Assembly: GCA_004298915.1 (NCBI GenBank) | Contig: SCTE01000249.1 | Location: 1 to 35,225, forward strand | Reading direction: 5' to 3' | DNA length: 35,225 nucleotides | DNA from: Chloroflexota bacterium | Lineage (GTDB): Bacteria; Chloroflexota; Limnocylindria; Limnocylindrales; CSP1-4 | In this document: positions 22,979-31,629 of the stretch, piece after piece | Position numbering within the stretch: the first letter of the stretch is position 1 | Layout: each line of letters starts with the position of its first letter | Notes under the pieces: model-generated | The model's database searches: none | What the model was told of the DNA's origin: nothing | Seen by the model: only the letters and a program-made list of their open reading frames with translations | Made by a program: the position numbers and the translations under genes

Positions 22979-23007
22979 TTGATTCATTCGAACAGATGTT
23001 CGATACT
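22979..23007 (+). promoter_or_regulatory. LexA (SOS) box TCGAACAGATGTTCGA inside the imuA' promoter (-35 TTGATT, 17-bp spacer, -10 GATACT)
   Basis: The box at 22988-23003 is a perfect palindrome matching the actinobacterial consensus TCGAAC-N4-GTTCGA. The -10 ends 9 nt before the ATG at 23017, so the mRNA is leaderless or nearly so. Confidence 0.8.
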
Positions 23008-23016
23008 TACCATCTC

Positions 23017-24192
23017 ATGGCAACCCTGTCCGCGGATGTGACGACCGCCCTCGCGACCCTGCAATCGCGCTGGGGAGCGGCCGCGCCGCGCCCCGGGGAA
23101 GTGATGGGAGCACTCGCGCTGGCGCCTGCCGTCCTGCCGGATGCGGCCACGAACCCGGACCCGACGCCCGACCTCGCGCGCGTCTACTCCACCGGGTTCC
23201 CGGCGCTGGATGCCATCCTCGGGCCGGGGGGCCTGCCACGCGGGATGGGCCTTTCGCTGCGGGGCGAGCTCTCGAGCGGGCGGACGACGATCGCCCTCCG
23301 GCTCGCTGCCGAGGCGCAGGCGAGTGGCGCCATCGTGGCCTGGCTTGATCTCGCGGAGGCCTTCGATCCGGTCGAAGCCGCGGCCCGCGGCATGCAGCTG
23401 GAGTGGCTGGTAGTGCTCACCCCGGCTGGCCCGGAGGAGGGCCTCGCGATCGCGGGGTCGCTCCTGTCCGGCCGGACCGTGGACCTGCTCGTCATGGACC
23501 TGCCGCCTCGTCCGGACGGAGCGTCGCGCTTTGCCGATCGACTCGGGCGGCTCGCCGCCCTGGCTCGCCGGGCGGGTATCTCGCTGCTCATCCTCGAACC
23601 GCCGGGCCTCGTGAACTCGGTGGCGGCCGCGGTCGGGGAGGGCACGGGCATCCGCCTCGAACTCGAGCGACGGTCATGGATCCGGCTTGGCCGCGATGTC
23701 GTCGGGCAGGCCGCCGATGTCGTCGTCGCGCGGAGCCGGGCCGGCCCACCCGGGCGGCGGACCACGCTCCGGATCCTCTATGCCGACGGCGGGGATCGGG
23801 ATGCGTGCCTCCGCCAGGAGGCCCTCCTCAGGGAAGGCTTGCCGGCCGAGGTCGTGCCCATCCGGGCCAACCCCCGCGCCGGCAGTACCACCGACCGATC
23901 CACCCGATTCGCCGCCCCAATTCATGCCCCCGTTCCAGTGCCCGGGACGACCCATGCAACTCCTTCATTGCTATCGCCCGCATCTCCTCCTCGACCTGAC
24001 CAGGCAGCGCCGGGCCTCCGGCTCGTGGCCGGCGGGCCCGATCGTCCTCGGGGGCCAGCCATGGGGCGCGGGGACCGTGCTGGACGCGGATCCCGCGGCC
24101 CGGCACCTCGGCGTCCGGCGCGGGATGCCGCTCGGGTCGGCTCACCGGCTGGCACCGGAGGCAACCTTCCTCGATCCGGAACCGGAGGCTGA
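23017..24192 (+). CDS. imuA: ImuA/ImuA'-type RecA-fold SOS mutasome protein
   Basis: GFPALDAILGPGGLPRGMGLSLRGELSSGRTTIALRLAAEAQASGAIVAWLDLAEAFDP...VDLLVMDL parallels the RecA core. The gene is preceded by a LexA box and followed by imuB. The conserved part ends near aa 275, but the frame stays open to 24192. Confidence 0.75.
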   Translation: MATLSADVTTALATLQSRWGAAAPRPGEVMGALALAPAVLPDAATNPDPTPDLARVYSTGFPALDAILGPGGLPRGMGLSLRGELSSGRTTIALRLAAEAQASGAIVAWLDLAEAFDPVEAAARGMQLEWLVVLTPAGPEEGLAIAGSLLSGRTVDLLVMDLPPRPDGASRFADRLGRLAALARRAGISLLILEPPGLVNSVAAAVGEGTGIRLELERRSWIRLGRDVVGQAADVVVARSRAGPPGRRTTLRILYADGGDRDACLRQEALLREGLPAEVVPIRANPRAGSTTDRSTRFAAPIHAPVPVPGTTHATPSLLSPASPPRPDQAAPGLRLVAGGPDRPRGPAMGRGDRAGRGSRGPAPRRPARDAARVGSPAGTGGNLPRSGTGG

Positions 24193-25213
24193 TCGGGCGT
24201 CCATCGAGGCCGCCTTCGAGGCGCTCGCGACGTTCAGCCCGGCGATTGCCGGATCAGCCGATCCCGCGGACCAGGCATTCGGCCTGCTCGAGGCCCAGAT
24301 CGACGGCCTCGAGCTCCTGTGGGGCCCGGAGCCGGTCCTCGTCGAACGGATCGGCGCGAAGCTGGCGCCGATCCTCGCCGGGCGGCCCCGCAACGGCATT
24401 GCCGGGACGCGCTTCGCGGCGATGGTCGCGGCGGCGACCGCGGAGCCCGGGGCGTTGATGTCCGTGCCCCCCGGCGGGGAAGCAGCCTTCCTGGCGCCGA
24501 TGCCGACCGGGCTGCTGACCCAGGATGCCGAGATCCGGGCCCGCCTGCGGCGCTTCGGGCTGCGCCGGATCGGGCAGGTTGCCGAGCTCGCCGCGTCCGC
24601 GCTCGTGGCCAGGTTCGGGGAGGAAGGCGCCCGGATCGGGGCCCGGGCCCGGGGCGAGGAGACCGATCCCTTCCGGCCGCGCCGGGCCCCCGAGCGATTG
24701 CTCCTGGCCCTCCCGATCGAGCCGCCGGTCGCGGAGCTGGAGGCCGTCCGGTTCGTGCTGCGACGGATCGCCACCGCGCTTGCCGCGAACCTCGCGGCCC
24801 GCGGCCTTGCGGCCGCGCGCGGGCAGGTCCGCCTGGAGCTGGATCTCGCCTTCGCCCGCGCGGGGACACGCGGCGAGGTGATCATCCAGGCGCGGTTCCC
24901 CGAGCCGACCGCCGATGCGGAGGCGATCGAGCGGCTGCTCCTGGCGCACCTCGAGCGGACCCCACCCCCGGCCCCGGTCGCCCGCCTGGAGCTCGAGCTG
25001 TCCGGTGCCGAGCCGGCCGAGGGTCAGCAGCTGCCGCTGTTCATCCCGCAGGCCCTGCGCGGCGCACGGCTGCGCTGGCAACTTGCCCGATTGGCGATGA
25101 CCTATGGCGAGGATCGCGTTCGCAGCGTGGTCATCACGGACCCGGAAGCGCCGCTGTCCGAGAATCGCTGGGCCTGGCGGGCGGTGGCAGGCGCGGGCGG
25201 GCCCCTCCGATGA
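23954..25213 (+). CDS. imuB: ImuB, Y-family-polymerase-like mutasome subunit
   Basis: MQLLHCYRPHLLLDL...VLDADPAARHLGVRRGMPLGSA...LEAQIDGLELLWG resembles the DinB fold but lacks the catalytic acidic N-terminal motif. The position is typical for imuB. Confidence 0.85.
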   Translation: MQLLHCYRPHLLLDLTRQRRASGSWPAGPIVLGGQPWGAGTVLDADPAARHLGVRRGMPLGSAHRLAPEATFLDPEPEADRASIEAAFEALATFSPAIAGSADPADQAFGLLEAQIDGLELLWGPEPVLVERIGAKLAPILAGRPRNGIAGTRFAAMVAAATAEPGALMSVPPGGEAAFLAPMPTGLLTQDAEIRARLRRFGLRRIGQVAELAASALVARFGEEGARIGARARGEETDPFRPRRAPERLLLALPIEPPVAELEAVRFVLRRIATALAANLAARGLAAARGQVRLELDLAFARAGTRGEVIIQARFPEPTADAEAIERLLLAHLERTPPPAPVARLELELSGAEPAEGQQLPLFIPQALRGARLRWQLARLAMTYGEDRVRSVVITDPEAPLSENRWAWRAVAGAGGPLR

Positions 25214-25458
25214 CGAGGCTCCTTCATGCGCACCCGGCCATCGAGCCGGAACTCGATGGTGGTGGTGCGCTCGTGGCCATCCGCTGGGCGGGTCGCCGGG
25301 AGCCCGTCGAGGTCTGCAATCGCTGGCGGGTCGAGGAGACCTGGTGGCGCGAGCCGATCGCGCGGGACTATTTCAAGGTCGTCGGAACGCGCTGGCTCGC
25401 GCTCATCTACTACGACCGCGTCAGCGGCTCATGGCACCTGGAGCGGCTCTACGACTGA
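25210..25458 (+). CDS. small Trp/Arg-rich conserved-looking protein (82 aa) translationally coupled to imuB
   Basis: The ATG at 25210 overlaps the imuB TGA (ATGA). The product is MTRLLHAHPAIEPELDGGGALVAIRWAGRREPVEVCNRWRVEETWWREPIARDYFKVVGTRWLALIYYDRVSGSWHLERLYD. It may belong to a catalogued DUF (I recall DUF6504). That assignment is unverified. Confidence 0.65.
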   Translation: MTRLLHAHPAIEPELDGGGALVAIRWAGRREPVEVCNRWRVEETWWREPIARDYFKVVGTRWLALIYYDRVSGSWHLERLYD

Positions 25459-25602: not shown

Positions 25603-25741
25603 CAAACATCTCCCCGATCGCCGTCGAACCGGTCCCGGTCGGTTCGCCCGAAGGAGTGTAGCTGCGAATCGCACATCGTGCGAGCGAAAAATTCAGCCGA
25701 TGGAACGCCCGTTCGAAGTCTCGAGGTCCGATGCCCCTCCG

Positions 25742-26461: not shown

Positions 26462-26627
26462 GGGGGAATCCTACCCCGAGCGTGGCAGGACCCCGCCGCC
26501 CCCAGATGCGACGGGGTCCTGTGCGTGGTCCGATCACCTGCTCACCAGGTGCCGGCCGATCGGTGACCGGCGTGGTACCGATCCCCGAGCCTCACCCCGG
26601 CTCTGCGCCGGAGCGGTGCTTTCGAGT

Positions 26628-26759
26628 TCAGGTTCCGGTCTGGGCTGCCAGGGCCGCCGGGAGGAGGACGAGGATCAGGAGACTCACGATGGCGATCATC
26701 GCGACGATCCTCGTCAGGACGGCGGCAAGGCTGCGAAACGAACGGAAGCCTGTTTCCAC
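26628..26759 (-). CDS. small single-TM peptide (43 aa from GTG 26759; up to 61 aa if GTG 26813)
   Basis: METGFRSFRSLAAVLTRIVAMIAIVSLLILVLLPAALAAQTGT*. About 36 of 43 codons end in G or C. It is transcribed divergently from dnaE2. The start codon is uncertain and the SD is weak. Confidence 0.35.
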   Translation of the reverse strand: METGFRSFRSLAAVLTRIVAMIAIVSLLILVLLPAALAAQTGT

Positions 26760-26808
26760 GGCCCTTCTGACGCCACCGGGCGACAAGTTGTTGCGTCGCC
26801 GGGCGAAC

Positions 26809-26837
26809 TTCACGGTATCGAACAGATGTTCTATACT
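26809..26837 (+). promoter_or_regulatory. LexA (SOS) box TCGAACAGATGTTCTA inside the dnaE2 promoter (-35 TTCACG, 17-bp spacer, -10 TATACT)
   Basis: The box is at 26818-26833. The 20-nt stretch TCGAACAGATGTTC[G/T]ATACT is 19/20 identical to the imuA' promoter element, and the box sits at the same position relative to the -10. Confidence 0.75.
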
Positions 26838-26874
26838 GCCCGTTCATCTGCCCCCCCCGACACCGGGACCTGCC

Positions 26875-29800
26875 GTGGCTCAATTCCCGTACGCGGAGCT
26901 CCACTGTCACTCCAACTTCTCGTTCCTCGACGGGGCGTCGCCGGTCGAGGACCTGGTGGCACGGGCAGTCGAGCTCGGCCTGACCGGCCTCGGGATCACC
27001 GACCACCTCGGCCTGTATGGCGTGGTCCGATTTGCGGCGGCAGCCGAGGCGGCAGGCCTCCACCCGGTCATCGGAGTGGAAGTCGAGCTGCTCGACGCCG
27101 TCGTCGCCGATCCCTCAGGGGTCGTGGTCCCGGGTCGCCGGGCTGCGCGCCGCGGACGCCCGCCTGCAACCACGTCGATGGCTCCGTTCGACGTGATCGG
27201 TGCGGCCGGGGCCGTCGAGGGCCTGCCTGCGCGGCGGCGACCGGAGCGTGCCAGGCCCCCCGGCCATCGAGCGATCGTGAAGGAGGACCTGCGAGGGATC
27301 GGGGAACGCCAGCGGGGCCCGCATCTCGTGCTGCTGGCCCGGGACGCGACCGGGTACCGGAGCCTGTGCCGTCTCGTGTCCCATGCCAACCTGGCCGGCA
27401 CCAAGCGCGTGCCGCGGTTCAGCCAGGCGCTCCTCGCCGAGCATGCCGAGGGTCTCGTGGCGCTGTCCGGCTGCCGGGACGGCGAGATCGCCCGGCGACT
27501 CCTGGTGGGAGACCGCGCGGGGGCACGGGCGGCGGCGGAGCGGTATGCGAGGATCTTCGGGGGGAGCGGCGGCTCGCGTGTCCGGGCCGGCACTTCCGGG
27601 GACGGGCCCGCCACGAGCGGCTTCTTCCTCGAGCTGTCCCATCACCTGCTCCCCGACGACGACTGGCTCGTCGCCGAGACGGCGTCGCTCGCCGCCGACA
27701 TCGGGCTGCCCGTCGTCACCACGAACGACGTCCACCACGCCCGGGCCGAGGATCGCGAGCTCGGCGACGTCCTGACGGCCATCGCGCATGGGCGGACGCT
27801 CGACACGCTCGCCGACCTGCGCCGGCCGAACGGGGAATCGCACCTCAAGTCGGGTGCGGACCTCATGGCGATGCCGCCGGGGGACGCGGCCTTCGCGCGG
27901 GCGGACCCTGCGACGGCCAGGGCCTGGGTCGAGGGGATGGGCAATGCCGTCGAGGTCGCGGCCTCGTGCACCGTCGACCTCGGGTTCGAGCGGTATCGCT
28001 TCCCGGGCTTCCCGGTGCCCGCCGGGGAGACGGCGTTCAGCTATCTCGTCGAGCTCTGCCAGGCCGGCGTCCGTCGCCGCTACCACCCGGTCTCGCCGCC
28101 GGTCGTCCGGCAGCTCGCCCACGAGCTCGATGTCGTCGAGAAGACCGGGCTCGCCGAGTTCTTCCTGATCTGCTGGGACCTGATGCGCTTCGCGAAGGAG
28201 CGGGGGATCCCGGCCCAGGGCCGGGGCAGCGCCGCGGATTCGATCATCGCCTATGCCCTCGGGATCACCCGGGTCGATCCGATCCGCCACAACCTGCTGT
28301 TCGAGCGGTTCATCAACGAGGGCCGGACGACGTACCCGGACGTGGACATCGACTTCTCCTCGGAGCGGCGGGAGGAGGTCATCCAGTACGTCTATCAGCG
28401 CTACGGCCCGGAGCACACGGGGATGGTCTGCAACCTCGTCACGTACCGGGCGCGATCCGCCGTCCGCGAGGTCGGCTATGCGCTGGGGTTCCCGCGGCCG
28501 CTGGTCGATCGGGTGGCCAAGGCGCTCGAGACGTACGACAGCGTGATGGTGCGGCGGGACCTCGAGGCGGATGGGGGATTCGCGGACTTCTTCCGTCGAC
28601 CGGGGGACGAGGGGAGTGGCGGCGCCGCTGGCGAGGCGGTCGCGGCAGCAGCGGCACGAACCGGGGAGCGCGGCCTGACCGATCGGATGGGCCAACTCAA
28701 CGTGCGACGCGGTGGAGTGCCCCGTCCGGCCGGCGCGGGGAGCGGCGGGCGTGCCGTGCCCGGGGCCGTGCCGAGGGGCCGGCCCGAGGTTGTGCCCGGG
28801 GCCGTGCCGGTGGGCCGACCCGAAGTTGTGCCCGGGGCCGTGCCGGGTCGCCGGCCCGAGGGCGTGCCCGGGGCCGTGCCGGGTCGCCGGCCCGGACTTG
28901 GCCAAACGAACATCCCCGGATTACTGGGCAGCGAACAGGCGGCAACCAGGCCCGGCAGCTCCCCGGGCCTGGCCGAAATCATCCCGGCGGGAGCGTGGCT
29001 CGGGACAAATCCTGCCGGGCAGGACGGGGAGTCGGGGCACGGTGGGGGCTCGGTGCTGCCCAGCGATCCCCCGGTGGTAGTACGGCAGGAAGTTGCGGCC
29101 CAGATCGCTCCTACCACGGCCGCGGCCCCCGCCTCGCCGTCCCGGGCCGGCCCGGGGCCGCCGGTTGCCGCCGGCAGCGGCCACCGCGGCGGCACTTGGG
29201 CCATGGCCGCGGGATCCAAGCCGTCCATTCGAGCGGGTGGCGTGTCGGACGACAAGGGTGGCCCGGGCGATTCGCCGGCGAGCGTGGCGTGGCTGGAGTC
29301 GGGGCGTGGCACGGGATACGGGTCGGGTAGCGGGGATGGCCGCGGAGCGGGGCCGGCGTCCGTGGCGCCCGGCACGGTCGATGGCCGCGCGATCGATCCC
29401 GAATCGGGAGCAGTGGCGCCGCCCACGAGGCGCACGGATCGCCTGGGGCGGCCGCATCGCTGGGACCCGCCCGCGCCGCCGACGCACGGGATGGGCCGCG
29501 GGGGAGCGGGCCCTGGTGCCGCCGCGAGTGCCGCGGCCGGCGCGCCGCAGAGTTCCGTGGCGCGCGTGGAGCCCGAAGTGCCGGCCCACCCCCGTGGCGG
29601 GAGCACGATCGGGATGTCCGACTGGGAGCGCTGGCTCGAGTTCTGCGCCCGGATCGACGGGTTCCCGCGGCACCTCAGCATCCATTCCGGCGGGATGCTC
29701 GTGACGGCTGCCCCGCTCATCGACATCGCACCGCTGGAGCGCGCGACGATGAAGGACCGCGTCGTCGTCCAATTCGACAAGCGCGACGTCGAGACGCTCA

Positions 29801-31629
29801 AGCTGATCAAGCTCGACCTGCTCGGGCTCGGCATGCTCGCGGCCATCGACGAGACGCTCCAGCTCATCGAGAGCGACTGCGCGACCTGCATCGACCTCGA
29901 CGCCATTCCCGAGGAGATCCCCGAGGTCTTCGCGATGCTCCAGGCCGCCGACACCGTCGGCGTGTTCCAGGTGGAAAGCCGGGCCCAGATGCAGACCCTG
30001 CCGAAATCGAGGCCCGCCAGCCTGGACGATCTCGTCGTGGAGGTCGCGATCATCCGCCCAGGCCCGATCCAGGGCAACGCCGTCCACCCGTACCTGCGAC
30101 GCAAGCAGGGGCTCGAACCCGTGACCTATCTCCATCCGAGCCTCGAGCCGATCCTCGCCGAGACCCTTGGCGTGATCCTGTACCAGGAGCAGGTCATGAA
30201 GGTCGCGATCGAGGTCGCCGGGTTCACGCCGGCCGATTCGGACGGGTTCCGGCGGGCGATGGGCACGTGGCGATCGACCGGCGAGATGGAGAAGCTCCAT
30301 CGCCAGTTCGTGGACGGCTGCCTGCGCCAGCCCGGCATGACCGCGGAGGTCGCCGAGGAGCTGTTCGGCAAGGTGGCGGCGTTCGCGAGCTTCGGGTTCG
30401 CCAAGAGCCACGCGGCGGCGTTCGCGCGGACGGCCTATGAATCGAGCTTCCTCAAGCTGTTCTATCCCGCCCAGTTCCTGGTCGGGCTCATCAACGCCCA
30501 GCCGATGGGCTTCTACCCGGTCGAGGTCCTGATCAACGACGCCAAGCGCCACGGGGTGGCGATCCTGCCGGTCGACATCAACGCCTCGCGCTACAAGACG
30601 ACGACCGAGTGGGCGGGCCGGCCCGGCTGGGCCATCGCGGGCACGGCCGGAGACCCGCCGGCACCCGGGGCCGAGGGGCCACACGACGGCGATGAGGGCG
30701 AGCCGATCCCCGAGGGCGCCGGGATCACGAGCCGACCGGTCCCGGTCCGGTCCTCGGCGTGCTTCAACCCGATGAGCGCGGCACGCGATCGATGGGCGGC
30801 CGGGGATGCCGTGGGCTGGGGCGTGCGCCTCGGGCTGCATCTGGTCAAGGGGATCGGAGAGCAGCACGAGACGCTGCTCGACCGGGAGCTTGCGCGGGGC
30901 CCGTACGCCTCGCTGGCCGATGTCGTCGAACGGACCGGGCTGCCCGAGGAGGTCATCGAGCGGCTGATCCGGACCGGGGCGCTCGATTCGCTGGGGCGGC
31001 CCCGGCGCGAACTGCTGTGGCAACTGCGCGAGGTGGCGGGGGCGTCGCGGGGCCGGGTCGATGGCCAGGCACTCAGGGTCGCGAAGCAGGCCCGCGGCAG
31101 GAAGTCCGCGTCGGCGGGCCGCCCGATGGACCTGCGATTGCCCGCGACGGAGGCACCGGACCTGCCGCCCATCACGGAATCGGAGCGGGTCGGCGATGCC
31201 TACGCGGTGGTGGGGCTCGACGCGAGGCGACAGGTCGTGTCCCTGTTCCGGCCGGCGCTGGACCGGTTGGGCGCCGTCACGAACGGCTCACTTGCCGATC
31301 GGAAGCAGGGGCCGGTGCGGATCGGCGGGCTGGTCGTGACCCGCCAGCACCCGATGACCGCGAAGGGCACGGTCTTCCTCGCGGTCGAGGACGAGACGGG
31401 CATGGTCAACGTCACGCTATGGCCGGATACGTGGGCGCGGCTGCGAGGTGTCGTCCGGCGTCACGCGCTGCTCCTGATCGACGGCGACCTCCAGCGAGAG
31501 TCGTCGGTCGTGAACGTCGTGGCGCGCGATGTCAGGCCGTTGCCGGAGCTTGCCGTCGAGACGGCCGGACCGGGCGGCCCGGAGGGCGTCCGCCAGCTCG
31601 GCCATGCCGGCATGCGCCGGCTGGGCTGA
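26875..31629 (+). CDS. dnaE2: error-prone DNA polymerase III alpha-type subunit DnaE2, unusually long (~1584 aa)
   Basis: A GTG at 26875 opens VAQFPYAELHCHSNFSFLDGASPVEDLV (PHP domain). Downstream blocks are PRHLSIHSGGMLV, LKLDLLGLGML, VFQVESRAQM, IIRPGPIQG, ILYQEQVM and FGFAKSHAAAFA, followed by an OB-fold tail. The gene is LexA-boxed and pairs with imuA/imuB. The upstream part of the track ORF (26482-26874) holds the promoter. Confidence 0.9.
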   Translation: MAQFPYAELHCHSNFSFLDGASPVEDLVARAVELGLTGLGITDHLGLYGVVRFAAAAEAAGLHPVIGVEVELLDAVVADPSGVVVPGRRAARRGRPPATTSMAPFDVIGAAGAVEGLPARRRPERARPPGHRAIVKEDLRGIGERQRGPHLVLLARDATGYRSLCRLVSHANLAGTKRVPRFSQALLAEHAEGLVALSGCRDGEIARRLLVGDRAGARAAAERYARIFGGSGGSRVRAGTSGDGPATSGFFLELSHHLLPDDDWLVAETASLAADIGLPVVTTNDVHHARAEDRELGDVLTAIAHGRTLDTLADLRRPNGESHLKSGADLMAMPPGDAAFARADPATARAWVEGMGNAVEVAASCTVDLGFERYRFPGFPVPAGETAFSYLVELCQAGVRRRYHPVSPPVVRQLAHELDVVEKTGLAEFFLICWDLMRFAKERGIPAQGRGSAADSIIAYALGITRVDPIRHNLLFERFINEGRTTYPDVDIDFSSERREEVIQYVYQRYGPEHTGMVCNLVTYRARSAVREVGYALGFPRPLVDRVAKALETYDSVMVRRDLEADGGFADFFRRPGDEGSGGAAGEAVAAAAARTGERGLTDRMGQLNVRRGGVPRPAGAGSGGRAVPGAVPRGRPEVVPGAVPVGRPEVVPGAVPGRRPEGVPGAVPGRRPGLGQTNIPGLLGSEQAATRPGSSPGLAEIIPAGAWLGTNPAGQDGESGHGGGSVLPSDPPVVVRQEVAAQIAPTTAAAPASPSRAGPGPPVAAGSGHRGGTWAMAAGSKPSIRAGGVSDDKGGPGDSPASVAWLESGRGTGYGSGSGDGRGAGPASVAPGTVDGRAIDPESGAVAPPTRRTDRLGRPHRWDPPAPPTHGMGRGGAGPGAAASAAAGAPQSSVARVEPEVPAHPRGGSTIGMSDWERWLEFCARIDGFPRHLSIHSGGMLVTAAPLIDIAPLERATMKDRVVVQFDKRDVETLKLIKLDLLGLGMLAAIDETLQLIESDCATCIDLDAIPEEIPEVFAMLQAADTVGVFQVESRAQMQTLPKSRPASLDDLVVEVAIIRPGPIQGNAVHPYLRRKQGLEPVTYLHPSLEPILAETLGVILYQEQVMKVAIEVAGFTPADSDGFRRAMGTWRSTGEMEKLHRQFVDGCLRQPGMTAEVAEELFGKVAAFASFGFAKSHAAAFARTAYESSFLKLFYPAQFLVGLINAQPMGFYPVEVLINDAKRHGVAILPVDINASRYKTTTEWAGRPGWAIAGTAGDPPAPGAEGPHDGDEGEPIPEGAGITSRPVPVRSSACFNPMSAARDRWAAGDAVGWGVRLGLHLVKGIGEQHETLLDRELARGPYASLADVVERTGLPEEVIERLIRTGALDSLGRPRRELLWQLREVAGASRGRVDGQALRVAKQARGRKSASAGRPMDLRLPATEAPDLPPITESERVGDAYAVVGLDARRQVVSLFRPALDRLGAVTNGSLADRKQGPVRIGGLVVTRQHPMTAKGTVFLAVEDETGMVNVTLWPDTWARLRGVVRRHALLLIDGDLQRESSVVNVVARDVRPLPELAVETAGPGGPEGVRQLGHAGMRRLG
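28756..28899 (+). repeat. 4 x 36-bp in-frame tandem repeat inside dnaE2 (12-aa unit VPGAVPxGRPEV)
   Basis: The units are 28756-28791, 28792-28827, 28828-28863 and 28864-28899. All begin with the identical 18-mer GTGCCCGGGGCCGTGCCG. Confidence 0.95.

Follow-up and report, generated by a model that had tools for sequence, protein, structure and literature searches.

The ImuB-C domain was named in 2013 by Aravind, Anand and Iyer, who recognized it as the C-terminal domain of ImuB and also as a standalone protein, and who proposed a DNA-binding, damage-sensing role for it (PMC3765255). Free-standing ImuB-C proteins and "split ImuB" have been discussed in later surveys (PMC6511836; PMC12926913). 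The latter term applies to the DnaE2X-iPolY-ImuB-C-RecA systems (Timinskas & Venclovas 2019, PMC6511836; NAR 2026, PMC12926913), exemplified by Sphaerobacter thermophilus (ACZ39476) and Dehalogenimonas lykanthroporepellens (ADJ25744). These systems are reported to lack imuA in both operon and genome, and to use RecA (PMC12926913). [quoted passage not shown] The RecA-NT motif was defined in PMC6511836 and tested in PMC11791113; the clamp-binding motif of Mycobacterium smegmatis ImuB is 352-QLPLW-356 (PMC11791113).

We analyzed a 35,225-nt stretch of Chloroflexota DNA, referred to here as the window, which carries a small gene, ORF82, immediately after imuB. The preliminary description of this DNA took ORF82 for an extra, functionally unexplored fourth component of the mutasome. 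We propose instead, with a probability of roughly 0.8, that ORF82 is a free-standing ImuB-C and that this lineage encodes its ImuB as two polypeptides.

Gene content of the locus

ORF82 is preceded by a RecA-like gene and then a Y-family gene with IMS and IMS_C domains, and is followed by a gene for a DnaE-type polymerase. The features of the region are:

22988..23003, no strand assigned: perfect LexA-box-like palindrome TCGAACAGATGTTCGA (TCGAAC-N4-GTTCGA), just 5' of the imuA' start, found by motif search
23017..24192, + strand: imuA'-like gene, a divergent RecA paralogue (Pfam RecA, 82 bits, over part of the model only)
23954..25213, + strand: imuB lacking its C-terminal domain (ImuB-ΔC, 419 aa, ATG at 23954; Pfam IMS and IMS_C)
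25028..25042, + strand: β-clamp-binding-like motif QLPLF (ImuB residues 359-363), from alignment with fused ImuBs
25055..25135, + strand: RecA-NT-like motif LRGARLRWQLARLAMTYGEDRVRSVVI, a predicted ImuA'-binding element, from alignment only
25210..25458, + strand: standalone ImuB-C domain gene (82 aa; ORF82), as judged by homology, conservation, selection and fold model
26482..31629, + strand: dnaE2, given as the longest ORF (Pfam PHP, DNA_pol3_alpha, finger, HHH_6 and OB)
26818..26833, no strand assigned: second LexA-box-like palindrome TCGAACAGATGTTCTA, with 1 mismatch, in a promoter-like site 5' of dnaE2

The frame from 25210 to 25458 on the + strand gives a stop-free translation of 82 residues, and its ATG (25210-25212) overlaps the TGA of imuB (25211-25213) as a 4-nt ATGA. 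Coordinates and translation thus confirm the ORF and the overlap that had been described. The earlier remarks on composition also hold: the protein is of mixed composition with six Trp residues (W26, W39, W45, W46, W62 and W75), and GC content at the three codon positions is 70/49/85%, a third-position bias in the gene's own frame. We found 663 homologues; the 120 listed share 74-96% identity and are nearly all exactly 82 aa long. Among 15 genomes of the same family, the median dN/dS was 0.21 in the ORF82 frame versus 1.49 and 2.09 in the other frames, and variable columns numbered 40/36/69 at the first, second and third codon positions. ORF82 is under purifying selection, and the homologues together with the low in-frame dN/dS support the original view that it is a real gene and not a high-GC artefact.

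The imuA'-like gene was assigned an ATG at 23017, in frame with the longest ORF (start 22972). Its product scores 82 bits on TIGR02012 (cut-off 325) and between 67 and 82 bits across recA models, with a sub-threshold match to ImuA_translesion. The true recA lies on another contig (C587) and scores 548.6 bits. In relatives, the genes at this upstream position are likewise RecA paralogues; they reach 31-89 bits on the recA model (cut-off 325), and their ImuA matches stay below threshold. By these scores, the window is predicted to encode a dedicated ImuA-like protein that is distinct from RecA.

Homology between the window's ImuB and full-length ImuBs starts at residue one. Aligned by HMMER to DinB structures from E. 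coli, the protein has A and F opposite the DE of SLDEAYLD (D103/E104 of DinB), and the first catalytic Asp, read by eye, is lost as well. This ImuB is accordingly predicted to be an inactive protein of Y-family fold with its catalytic acidic residues replaced. In fused Chloroflexota ImuBs, the sequences aligned with QLPLF are EQLELF, KQMGLF and EQLGLF, and the RecA-NT-like motif lines up with the helix-Gly-strand stretch (…AEELFGNGTIGP…) that fused ImuBs contain. The window's protein ends about 25 residues past these two motifs.

Four LexA-box matches with at most one mismatch occur in the window, versus 0.09 expected by chance, and 34 of 68 related loci have a similar box at 2.2-2.5 kb upstream of their small ORF. 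The genome also encodes LexA (194 bits, above the cut-off). With a perfect palindrome ahead of the cassette, the LexA control claimed at the outset appears sound as a prediction. The dnaE2 gene probably starts after the box at 26818-26833. It lies about 1.4 kb from imuB and ORF82, behind ORFs on the opposite strand and with its own box, so production of DnaE2 in equal amounts is not implied. DnaE2 is the expected polymerase partner for ImuB-C.

Homology of ORF82 to the C-terminal domain of ImuB

The ORF82 protein had no match in Pfam or NCBIfam even at E ≤ 10. The preliminary description had named DUF6504 as a possible family and suggested a HMMER search of Pfam, and the family named proved close without being exact. 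DUF6504 (PF20114; gathering threshold 24.2 bits) matched neither the ORF82 protein nor anything else in the window's genome, but it is the only Pfam family matched by any ORF82 homologue, at 18 of 100 Chloroflexota homologues; the homologues P0163, P0222 and P0261 match it too. The tie between ORF82 and DUF6504 therefore runs only through intermediate homologues. The same model left ten fused Chloroflexota ImuBs unmatched. We rejected the idea that DUF6504 corresponds to the ImuA-less standalone group, just 5 of whose 24 members match; the model catches scattered members and not one clean branch. A tblastn search of plasmids for an annotated ImuB or DUF6504 record gave DinB-like matches only, or none.

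Profile comparisons connect ORF82 directly to ImuB. The 82-aa family profile matches the extreme C-termini of two proteins with IMS and IMS_C domains, at residues 437-501 of P0242 (501 aa) and residues 466-538 of P0264 (538 aa). When the family was compared by hhalign with the C-termini of 17 fused ImuBs, the probability of homology was 99.5% (E 1e-22, 75 columns). The corresponding values were 98.7% (E 4e-16) for the ImuA-less standalone ImuB-C group and 89% (E 2e-6) for the single Dehalogenimonas ImuB-C ADJ25744, the sequence of which was taken from the supplement of PMC12926913. In alignments, ORF82 matches the domain lying after the clamp and RecA-NT motifs of fused ImuBs, such that the split falls where ImuB-C begins.

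In the 100 sequences compared, W45 and W75 never vary, and W39, W46, R52 and Y54 are at least 90% conserved. The wide alignment of the family contains no conserved set of acidic, Cys or His residues suggestive of catalysis. These features agree with the ImuB-C description of 2013, in which a C-terminal Trp and basic residues are conserved and no catalytic pattern is seen.

An AlphaFold2 model of ORF82, built on a shallow alignment of 20 sequences with 74-96% identity, is all-β with eight strands and no helix (pLDDT 91, pTM 0.79), and bears out the compact β-rich domain envisaged earlier. Foldseek comparison of the model with the PDB returned nothing significant (best E 1.3, TM ≤ 0.44), and searching PDB sequences with the family profile yielded ribosomal matches at chance level only. 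The PDB holds no ImuB.

The domain is common in the phylum, being carried by 100 of 301 sampled Chloroflexota genomes. Among 101 ImuB-C loci, 77 are split with an adjoining Y-family gene and 17 are fused. Close relatives resemble the window in gene order: of the 70 with enough flanking sequence, 69 have an ImuA-like gene upstream, and dnaE2 lies downstream in 65 of 78 split loci. In two genomes (L063 and L081), an in-frame fusion joins ImuB-C to the N-terminus of DnaE2, immediately ahead of the PHP domain, in agreement with the ImuB-C/PHP interface of the published models (PMC12926913). A Y-family tree places the window's ImuB body among the ImuA-associated ImuBs, outside the ImuA-less clade; the tree is unrooted and gives no order of the split and fused states. 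Together, these results argue against the fourth component first proposed: ORF82 corresponds to the C-terminal part of canonical ImuB, and the cassette comprises the canonical mutasome parts on four polypeptides instead of three.

Function and translation of the separate domain

We envisage that imuA', imuB-ΔC and ORF82 would be transcribed together from the LexA-box promoter. The ImuB body, with its dead Y-family fold, clamp motif and RecA-NT-like motif, would bind the clamp, and would contact ImuA' through RecA-NT. ORF82 most likely does the job that ImuB-C performs in fused ImuB. From published models and the fusions, its likely role is that of an adaptor joining the PHP domain of DnaE2 to ImuA'/ImuB; the physical contacts proposed here all rely on AlphaFold models in the literature and on mycobacterial studies of a fused ImuB.

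The same ImuB-C identity could also support a different activity, in which the free domain binds damaged DNA or stalled forks and guides polymerases, as opposed to serving as a protein adaptor. The 2013 proposal was built on conserved basic residues and on association with many different repair systems, and R40 is conserved in the ORF82 family beside R52 and several Trp residues. We nevertheless consider a DNA sensor rather unlikely, because the AlphaFold models set ImuB-C on the PHP domain and ImuA, because its removal in M. smegmatis weakens, without abolishing, the ImuA'-ImuB complex, and because the in-frame ImuB-C-DnaE2 fusions fit a protein partner. The sensor and adaptor roles are compatible and not mutually exclusive.

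The junction itself bears on whether the two polypeptides are real. ORF82 would be a product of normal imuB if the assembly contained a frameshift, or if a programmed -1 ribosomal frameshift yielded fused ImuB. ORF82 does lie in the -1 frame relative to imuB, and in the assembly of one close relative (L127) imuB reads in frame into the domain, so the split and fused states are one indel apart. However, the preliminary description's suggestion to tabulate the gene after imuB, carried out in Chloroflexota, showed homologues present, with the ORF82 gene in a separate frame in 78 of the 80 nearest species-level genomes. Of these 78 genes, 68 begin with ATG and 10 with GTG, and 75 encode 82 aa. The 4-nt overlap is common to 67 of the 78 split close relatives, where an [A/G]TGA overlap and an M/V-T-R-L-L start recur in many independent assemblies. 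The nucleotides before the overlap are variable and include no conserved slippery heptamer, several genomes have spacers of 4-151 nt between the two ORFs that frameshifting could not bridge, and in a second lineage the overlap is 52 nt long, with a ribosome-binding site of its own (GGAGGT). Given the variable junction context, the inter-ORF spacers and the conserved start, we rejected programmed frameshifting and assembly error, to which we assign very little probability.

ORF82 is probably translated through termination-reinitiation where its start overlaps the imuB stop (ATGA). The ORF82 ATG lacks a clear Shine-Dalgarno sequence ahead of it, which fits reinitiation and is no proof of it. The translational coupling to imuB that was claimed initially is consistent with the start/stop overlap, and reinitiation there would keep ImuB-ΔC and ORF82 in step.

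Finally, an additional accessory factor with its own function, unrelated to the canonical ImuA'-ImuB-DnaE2 parts, is highly improbable even though ORF82 is a separate conserved cistron with no name in Pfam or NCBIfam: the family has its 99.5% profile-profile homology to ImuB C-termini, the domain missing from the window's ImuB is exactly ImuB-C, related Y-family clades alternate between the fused and the split form, and the window's ImuB contains no second ImuB-C-like domain, the genome as a whole giving a single match.

Comparison with described mutasomes

Our identification of ORF82 as ImuB-C has several implications. The hold of ImuB-C on DnaE2 and ImuA' is known so far from models alone. 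The natural fusions lend independent support to the predicted ImuB-C/PHP contact. A naturally soluble 9-kDa ImuB-C also offers a handle that could be produced by itself for structural and binding studies. For annotation, hundreds of "hypothetical protein" entries from Chloroflexota MAGs could be named as ImuB-C, and truncated-looking imuB genes beside a free ImuB-C need no pseudogene label.

Tentatively, and with more doubt than confidence, we suggest that imuA' - imuB-ΔC - imuB-C … dnaE2 may represent a separate class of mutasome with four subunits, one that is widespread in Limnocylindria and in several further Chloroflexota families and uses ImuB-C as a free, exchangeable adaptor. Such a class might bridge, as a missing intermediate, the ImuA-less iPolY-ImuB-C-DnaE2X-RecA systems and the three-protein canonical mutasome. 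In that case, attachment of the domain to ImuB, DnaE2 or (possibly) ImuA across lineages would map contacts within the complex.

As a member of the ImuB-C superfamily, ORF82 shares profile homology, a length of about 80 residues, an all-β fold, a conserved C-terminal Trp together with conserved basic residues but no catalytic motif, and an SOS-type gene neighbourhood that includes DnaE2 and a homologue of Y-family polymerases. It differs in belonging to a lineage-specific branch (82 aa, with an MTRLL… start and a …WHLERLYD end) that escapes the Pfam DUF6504 model.

The DnaE2X-iPolY-ImuB-C-RecA systems, which also occur in Chloroflexota, have in common with the window an inactive Y-family protein with RecA-NT, a free ImuB-C directly downstream and DnaE2. 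Unlike those systems, the window carries a dedicated ImuA-like gene immediately upstream, and its junction is a 4-nt overlap, whereas theirs is a 52-nt overlap with its own Shine-Dalgarno sequence.

The canonical mutasome of Mycobacterium, Caulobacter and Pseudomonas is built from the same modules, namely a RecA-like ImuA', a dead Y-family body with clamp motif, RecA-NT and ImuB-C, and DnaE2, and likewise has a LexA-box promoter. In the window, however, ImuB-C is a separate polypeptide and dnaE2 stands apart from imuA'-imuB (by about 1.4 kb) behind a box of its own. The natural split matches the engineered M. smegmatis ImuB-ΔC433 truncation, which still binds ImuA'. What may be new here is the combination of a dedicated ImuA-like gene, a split ImuB and DnaE2 behind LexA boxes.

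Reality and identity of the small gene behind imuB

The gene directly upstream of the small open reading frame encodes Y-family IMS and IMS_C domains. The imuB TGA and the small-ORF ATG have three bases in common to form ATGA, an overlap that had been described correctly from the sequence.

25210-25458, + strand: small ORF, open, 82 residues, MTRLLHAHPAIEPELDGGGALVAIRWAGRREPVEVCNRWRVEETWWREPIARDYFKVVGTRWLALIYYDRVSGSWHLERLYD

This frame is open for 379 codons in all in the GC-rich window. Because chance-open frames are common in GC-rich DNA, openness is uninformative, and the case for the gene rests on conservation. A word-indexed search returned 663 homologues of the 82-aa protein; among the 120 matches listed, identity was 74–96% and nearly all were exactly 82 aa. 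An alignment of 20 homologues contained 45 invariant columns. Across 15 genomes of the same family, the variable columns were mostly at third positions, and the median pairwise dN/dS was 0.21 in the small-ORF frame versus 1.49 and 2.09 in the other two. The preliminary description had named a dN/dS near 1 as grounds for doubt; the value is far from 1, and low in the proposed frame only. Together with the homologues, these results show that the small ORF is a real gene.

The same description suggested that the protein is an extra, fourth component of the ImuA/ImuA'–ImuB–DnaE2 mutasome. With a profile of the family, HMMER was run exhaustively over 1.84 billion representative proteins and gave 536 matches at E ≤ 0.001, most of them stand-alone proteins of 82–86 aa. 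In the few long matches, the domain was at the extreme C-terminus, as in the library proteins P0242 (501 aa, residues 437–501) and P0264 (538 aa, residues 466–538). Both also carry IMS and IMS_C domains, indicating that they are full-length ImuB-type Y-family proteins. In profile-profile comparison, the 82-aa family matched the C-termini of 17 fused ImuBs with 99.5% probability (E 1e-22, 75 columns). This homology rules out a new mutasome component: the protein corresponds to ImuB-C, the domain defined by Aravind, Anand and Iyer in 2013 (PMC3765255). ImuB-C is known both at the ImuB C-terminus and free-standing in operons linked to SOS, and was described as an all-beta domain that conserves a C-terminal Trp as well as basic residues and has no catalytic pattern (PMC3765255). 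In agreement with that description, W45 and W75 were invariant and W39, W46, R52 and Y54 nearly so in a wide alignment of 100 sequences. Two Chloroflexota standalone ImuB-C proteins, Sphaerobacter ACZ39476 and Dehalogenimonas ADJ25744, are printed in supplementary material to a survey from 2026 (PMC12926913). The 82-aa family matched ADJ25744 with 89% probability (E 2e-6), and the corresponding group of Chloroflexota homologues with 98.7% (E 4e-16). We conclude with good confidence that the 82-aa protein is ImuB-C in standalone form and makes up half of a split ImuB.

The suggested Pfam search gave no match for the 82-aa protein in Pfam or NCBIfam, even at E ≤ 10. The tentative suggestion of DUF6504 was nevertheless close. 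PF20114 (DUF6504) is the sole Pfam family matched by any member of the 82-aa family, including 18 of 100 Chloroflexota homologues, 5 of 24 members of a group lacking ImuA, and the library proteins P0163, P0222 and P0261, but it does not match the window protein. It also found no match in ten fused ImuBs. Matches to the Pfam model are thus scattered over the ImuB-C superfamily and do not extend to the window's branch. The predicted compact beta-rich domain was borne out by an AlphaFold2 model from the 20-sequence alignment (pLDDT 91, pTM 0.79), which has eight beta strands and no helix. Foldseek against the PDB, which holds no ImuB entry, returned nothing meaningful for this model (best E 1.3, TM ≤ 0.44), in agreement with the published account of ImuB-C as a novel-fold beta-barrel (PMC12926913).

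The split point and the ImuA-like partner

We aligned the window ImuB tail and the 82-aa protein with fused ImuBs. QQLPLF of the window ImuB, a beta-clamp-type motif, lies opposite EQLELF, KQMGLF and EQLGLF, and the helix-Gly-strand segment LRWQLARLAMTYGEDRVRSVVI aligns with the RecA-NT-like motif. The window ImuB ends approximately 25 residues past this segment, and the 82-aa protein aligns with the domain that follows the motif in fused proteins. M. smegmatis ImuB has the order clamp motif (352–356), RecA-NT (360–387), linker (388–421) and ImuB-C (422–525) (PMC11791113), which places the natural cut of the window ImuB in the linker. The cut resembles the engineered deltaC433 truncation of M. 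smegmatis ImuB, which still pulls down with ImuA' (PMC11791113). The Y-family body looks catalytically dead from its residues: the catalytic DE of SLDEAYLD is opposite A and F in a HMMER alignment with E. coli DinB structures, and the first catalytic Asp, judged by eye, is also replaced.

The gene preceding imuB is RecA-like. It scores 67–82 bits on recA models with a cut-off of 325, and the true recA of the genome (548.6 bits) is on another contig; by these scores the gene is an ImuA-type paralogue, and RecA was rejected. RecA-like genes beside split and fused ImuBs of other families score 31–89 bits on recA and 30–64 on the ImuA model. The imuA' frame remains open over the first 239 nt of imuB (23954-24192), and homology of the window imuB to full-length ImuBs begins at the ATG at 23954.

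A quick-search tree of 91 Y-family bodies placed the window's class in an all-split clade (28 rows, support 98), adjoined with weak support (85) by a clade of 11 rows that are all fused and ImuA-associated. The split group without ImuA forms a clade of its own (support 99). Well-supported branches require that the state switched between split and fused two to three times at the least; the direction of these changes cannot be read from this unrooted tree.

Distribution, junctions and regulation

The family profile matched 100 of 301 evenly sampled Chloroflexota genomes, including 15/15 of the window's family and 14/15 of another family of the same class. All 101 matching loci were fetched and classified.

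Junction of ImuB-C with the Y-family gene in 101 Chloroflexota loci
77 loci: frame of its own, immediately 3' of the Y-family gene
17 loci: fused ImuB, in frame with the Y-family gene, 450–670 aa
5 loci: Y-family gene not found in the fetched stretch; several at contig ends
1 locus: ImuB-C 1.1 kb from the Y-family gene
1 locus: ambiguous state

Two split junctions recur. The 4-nt [A/G]TGA overlap seen in the window is found mostly at loci with an upstream RecA-like gene. The 52-nt overlap, with GGAGGT 5–6 bases ahead of the start codon, occurs at loci without that gene, a group that holds the published Dehalogenimonas-type proteins. In these ImuA-less split loci (L018-L020, L027, L030, L060, L071, L074-L076, L079, L088, L091, L093), the ImuB-C gene begins 52 nt inside the Y-family gene end behind a conserved GGAGGT-N5-6-[A/G]TG, a pattern repeated over about ten families.

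All of the 80 nearest species-level genomes are MAGs from Chloroflexota, and many carry the label Limnocylindria or Limnocylindrales. Tabulating the gene downstream of imuB, as had been proposed, showed a separate small ORF in 78 of the 80, with the 4-nt overlap in 67 of those 78. Seventy-five small ORFs have exactly 82 codons, 69 of the 70 loci whose flank was long enough have an ImuA-like gene upstream, and dnaE2 lies downstream in 65 of the 78 split loci (median distance 1.2 kb). At L009:1400-1500 (G277, of the window's genus), 97 nt separate the imuB stop from the small ORF; this spacer opens with an apparent remnant of the common junction (ATGACCCGCCTC…), and the start in use has GGAGGGG ahead of it.

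Palindromes and polymerase gene of the window
22988-23003: perfect TCGAAC-N4-GTTCGA palindrome just ahead of the imuA' start
25701-25716: one-mismatch SOS-box-like palindrome TGGAACGCCCGTTCGA, in the opposite-strand stretch from the small ORF to dnaE2
26818-26833: one-mismatch palindrome copy inside a promoter-like site before dnaE2
About 1 kb downstream of the small ORF: DnaE-type polymerase gene with PHP, alpha, finger, HhH and OB domains

The window has four palindrome matches at ≤1 mismatch versus 0.09 expected, and 34 of 68 related loci have a similar box at the equivalent upstream position. In several relatives a box lies 480–650 nt downstream of the small-ORF start. The genome encodes LexA, and the stretch from imuA' to the small-ORF end yielded no promoter-like or terminator-like site. 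Co-transcription, LexA control and reinitiation at the ATGA are reasonable inferences from this arrangement.

Natural fusions and known systems

In two genomes of different families, ImuB-C is fused in frame to the DnaE2 N-terminus.

L063:2946-5708 (G203:C284): ImuB-C–DnaE2 fusion
L081:2935-6201 (G026:C61): ImuB-C–DnaE2 fusion

A linker of 30–40 residues joins ImuB-C to the PHP domain, which begins at residue 119 or 123, and each fusion gene is directly 3' of the Y-family gene with an overlap of 8 or 28 nt. These fusions agree with the contacts in an AlphaFold model of the M. tuberculosis mutasome, in which the largest ImuB-C interface is with the DnaE2 PHP domain and ImuA is also touched (PMC12926913). 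From the published models and the natural fusions, we infer that ImuB-C would act as an adaptor; a DNA-binding role is possible.

In the representative protein P0253 (371 aa), the N-terminal part is RecA-like (ImuA-like) and residues 290–370 form an ImuB-C-like domain; P0253 could be an ImuA–ImuB-C fusion or a gene-calling artefact. In the assembly of a close relative with 82% identity (L127:2700-3246, CAVZTK010000021.1), imuB continues in frame straight into the small domain of 82 aa (…VDRSVPSMTRLL…). A single indel thus separates the split state from the fused one, and L127 may represent either a genuine re-fusion or an indel error in the assembly.

ImuB-C is kept even in the most reduced ImuBs, and the pair iPolY and ImuB-C (with RecA) has been termed "split ImuB"; only the DnaE2A group was linked with ImuA and ImuB (PMC12926913). 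For systems with standalone ImuB-C, no imuA was found in the operon or genome (Timinskas and Venclovas 2019, PMC6511836), whereas the window has a dedicated ImuA-like gene together with a split ImuB. This combination is not among the types described in PMC6511836 or PMC12926913. We therefore regard it, conserved throughout a class and in several further families of Chloroflexota, as modestly new, and the natural ImuB-C–DnaE2 fusions likewise.
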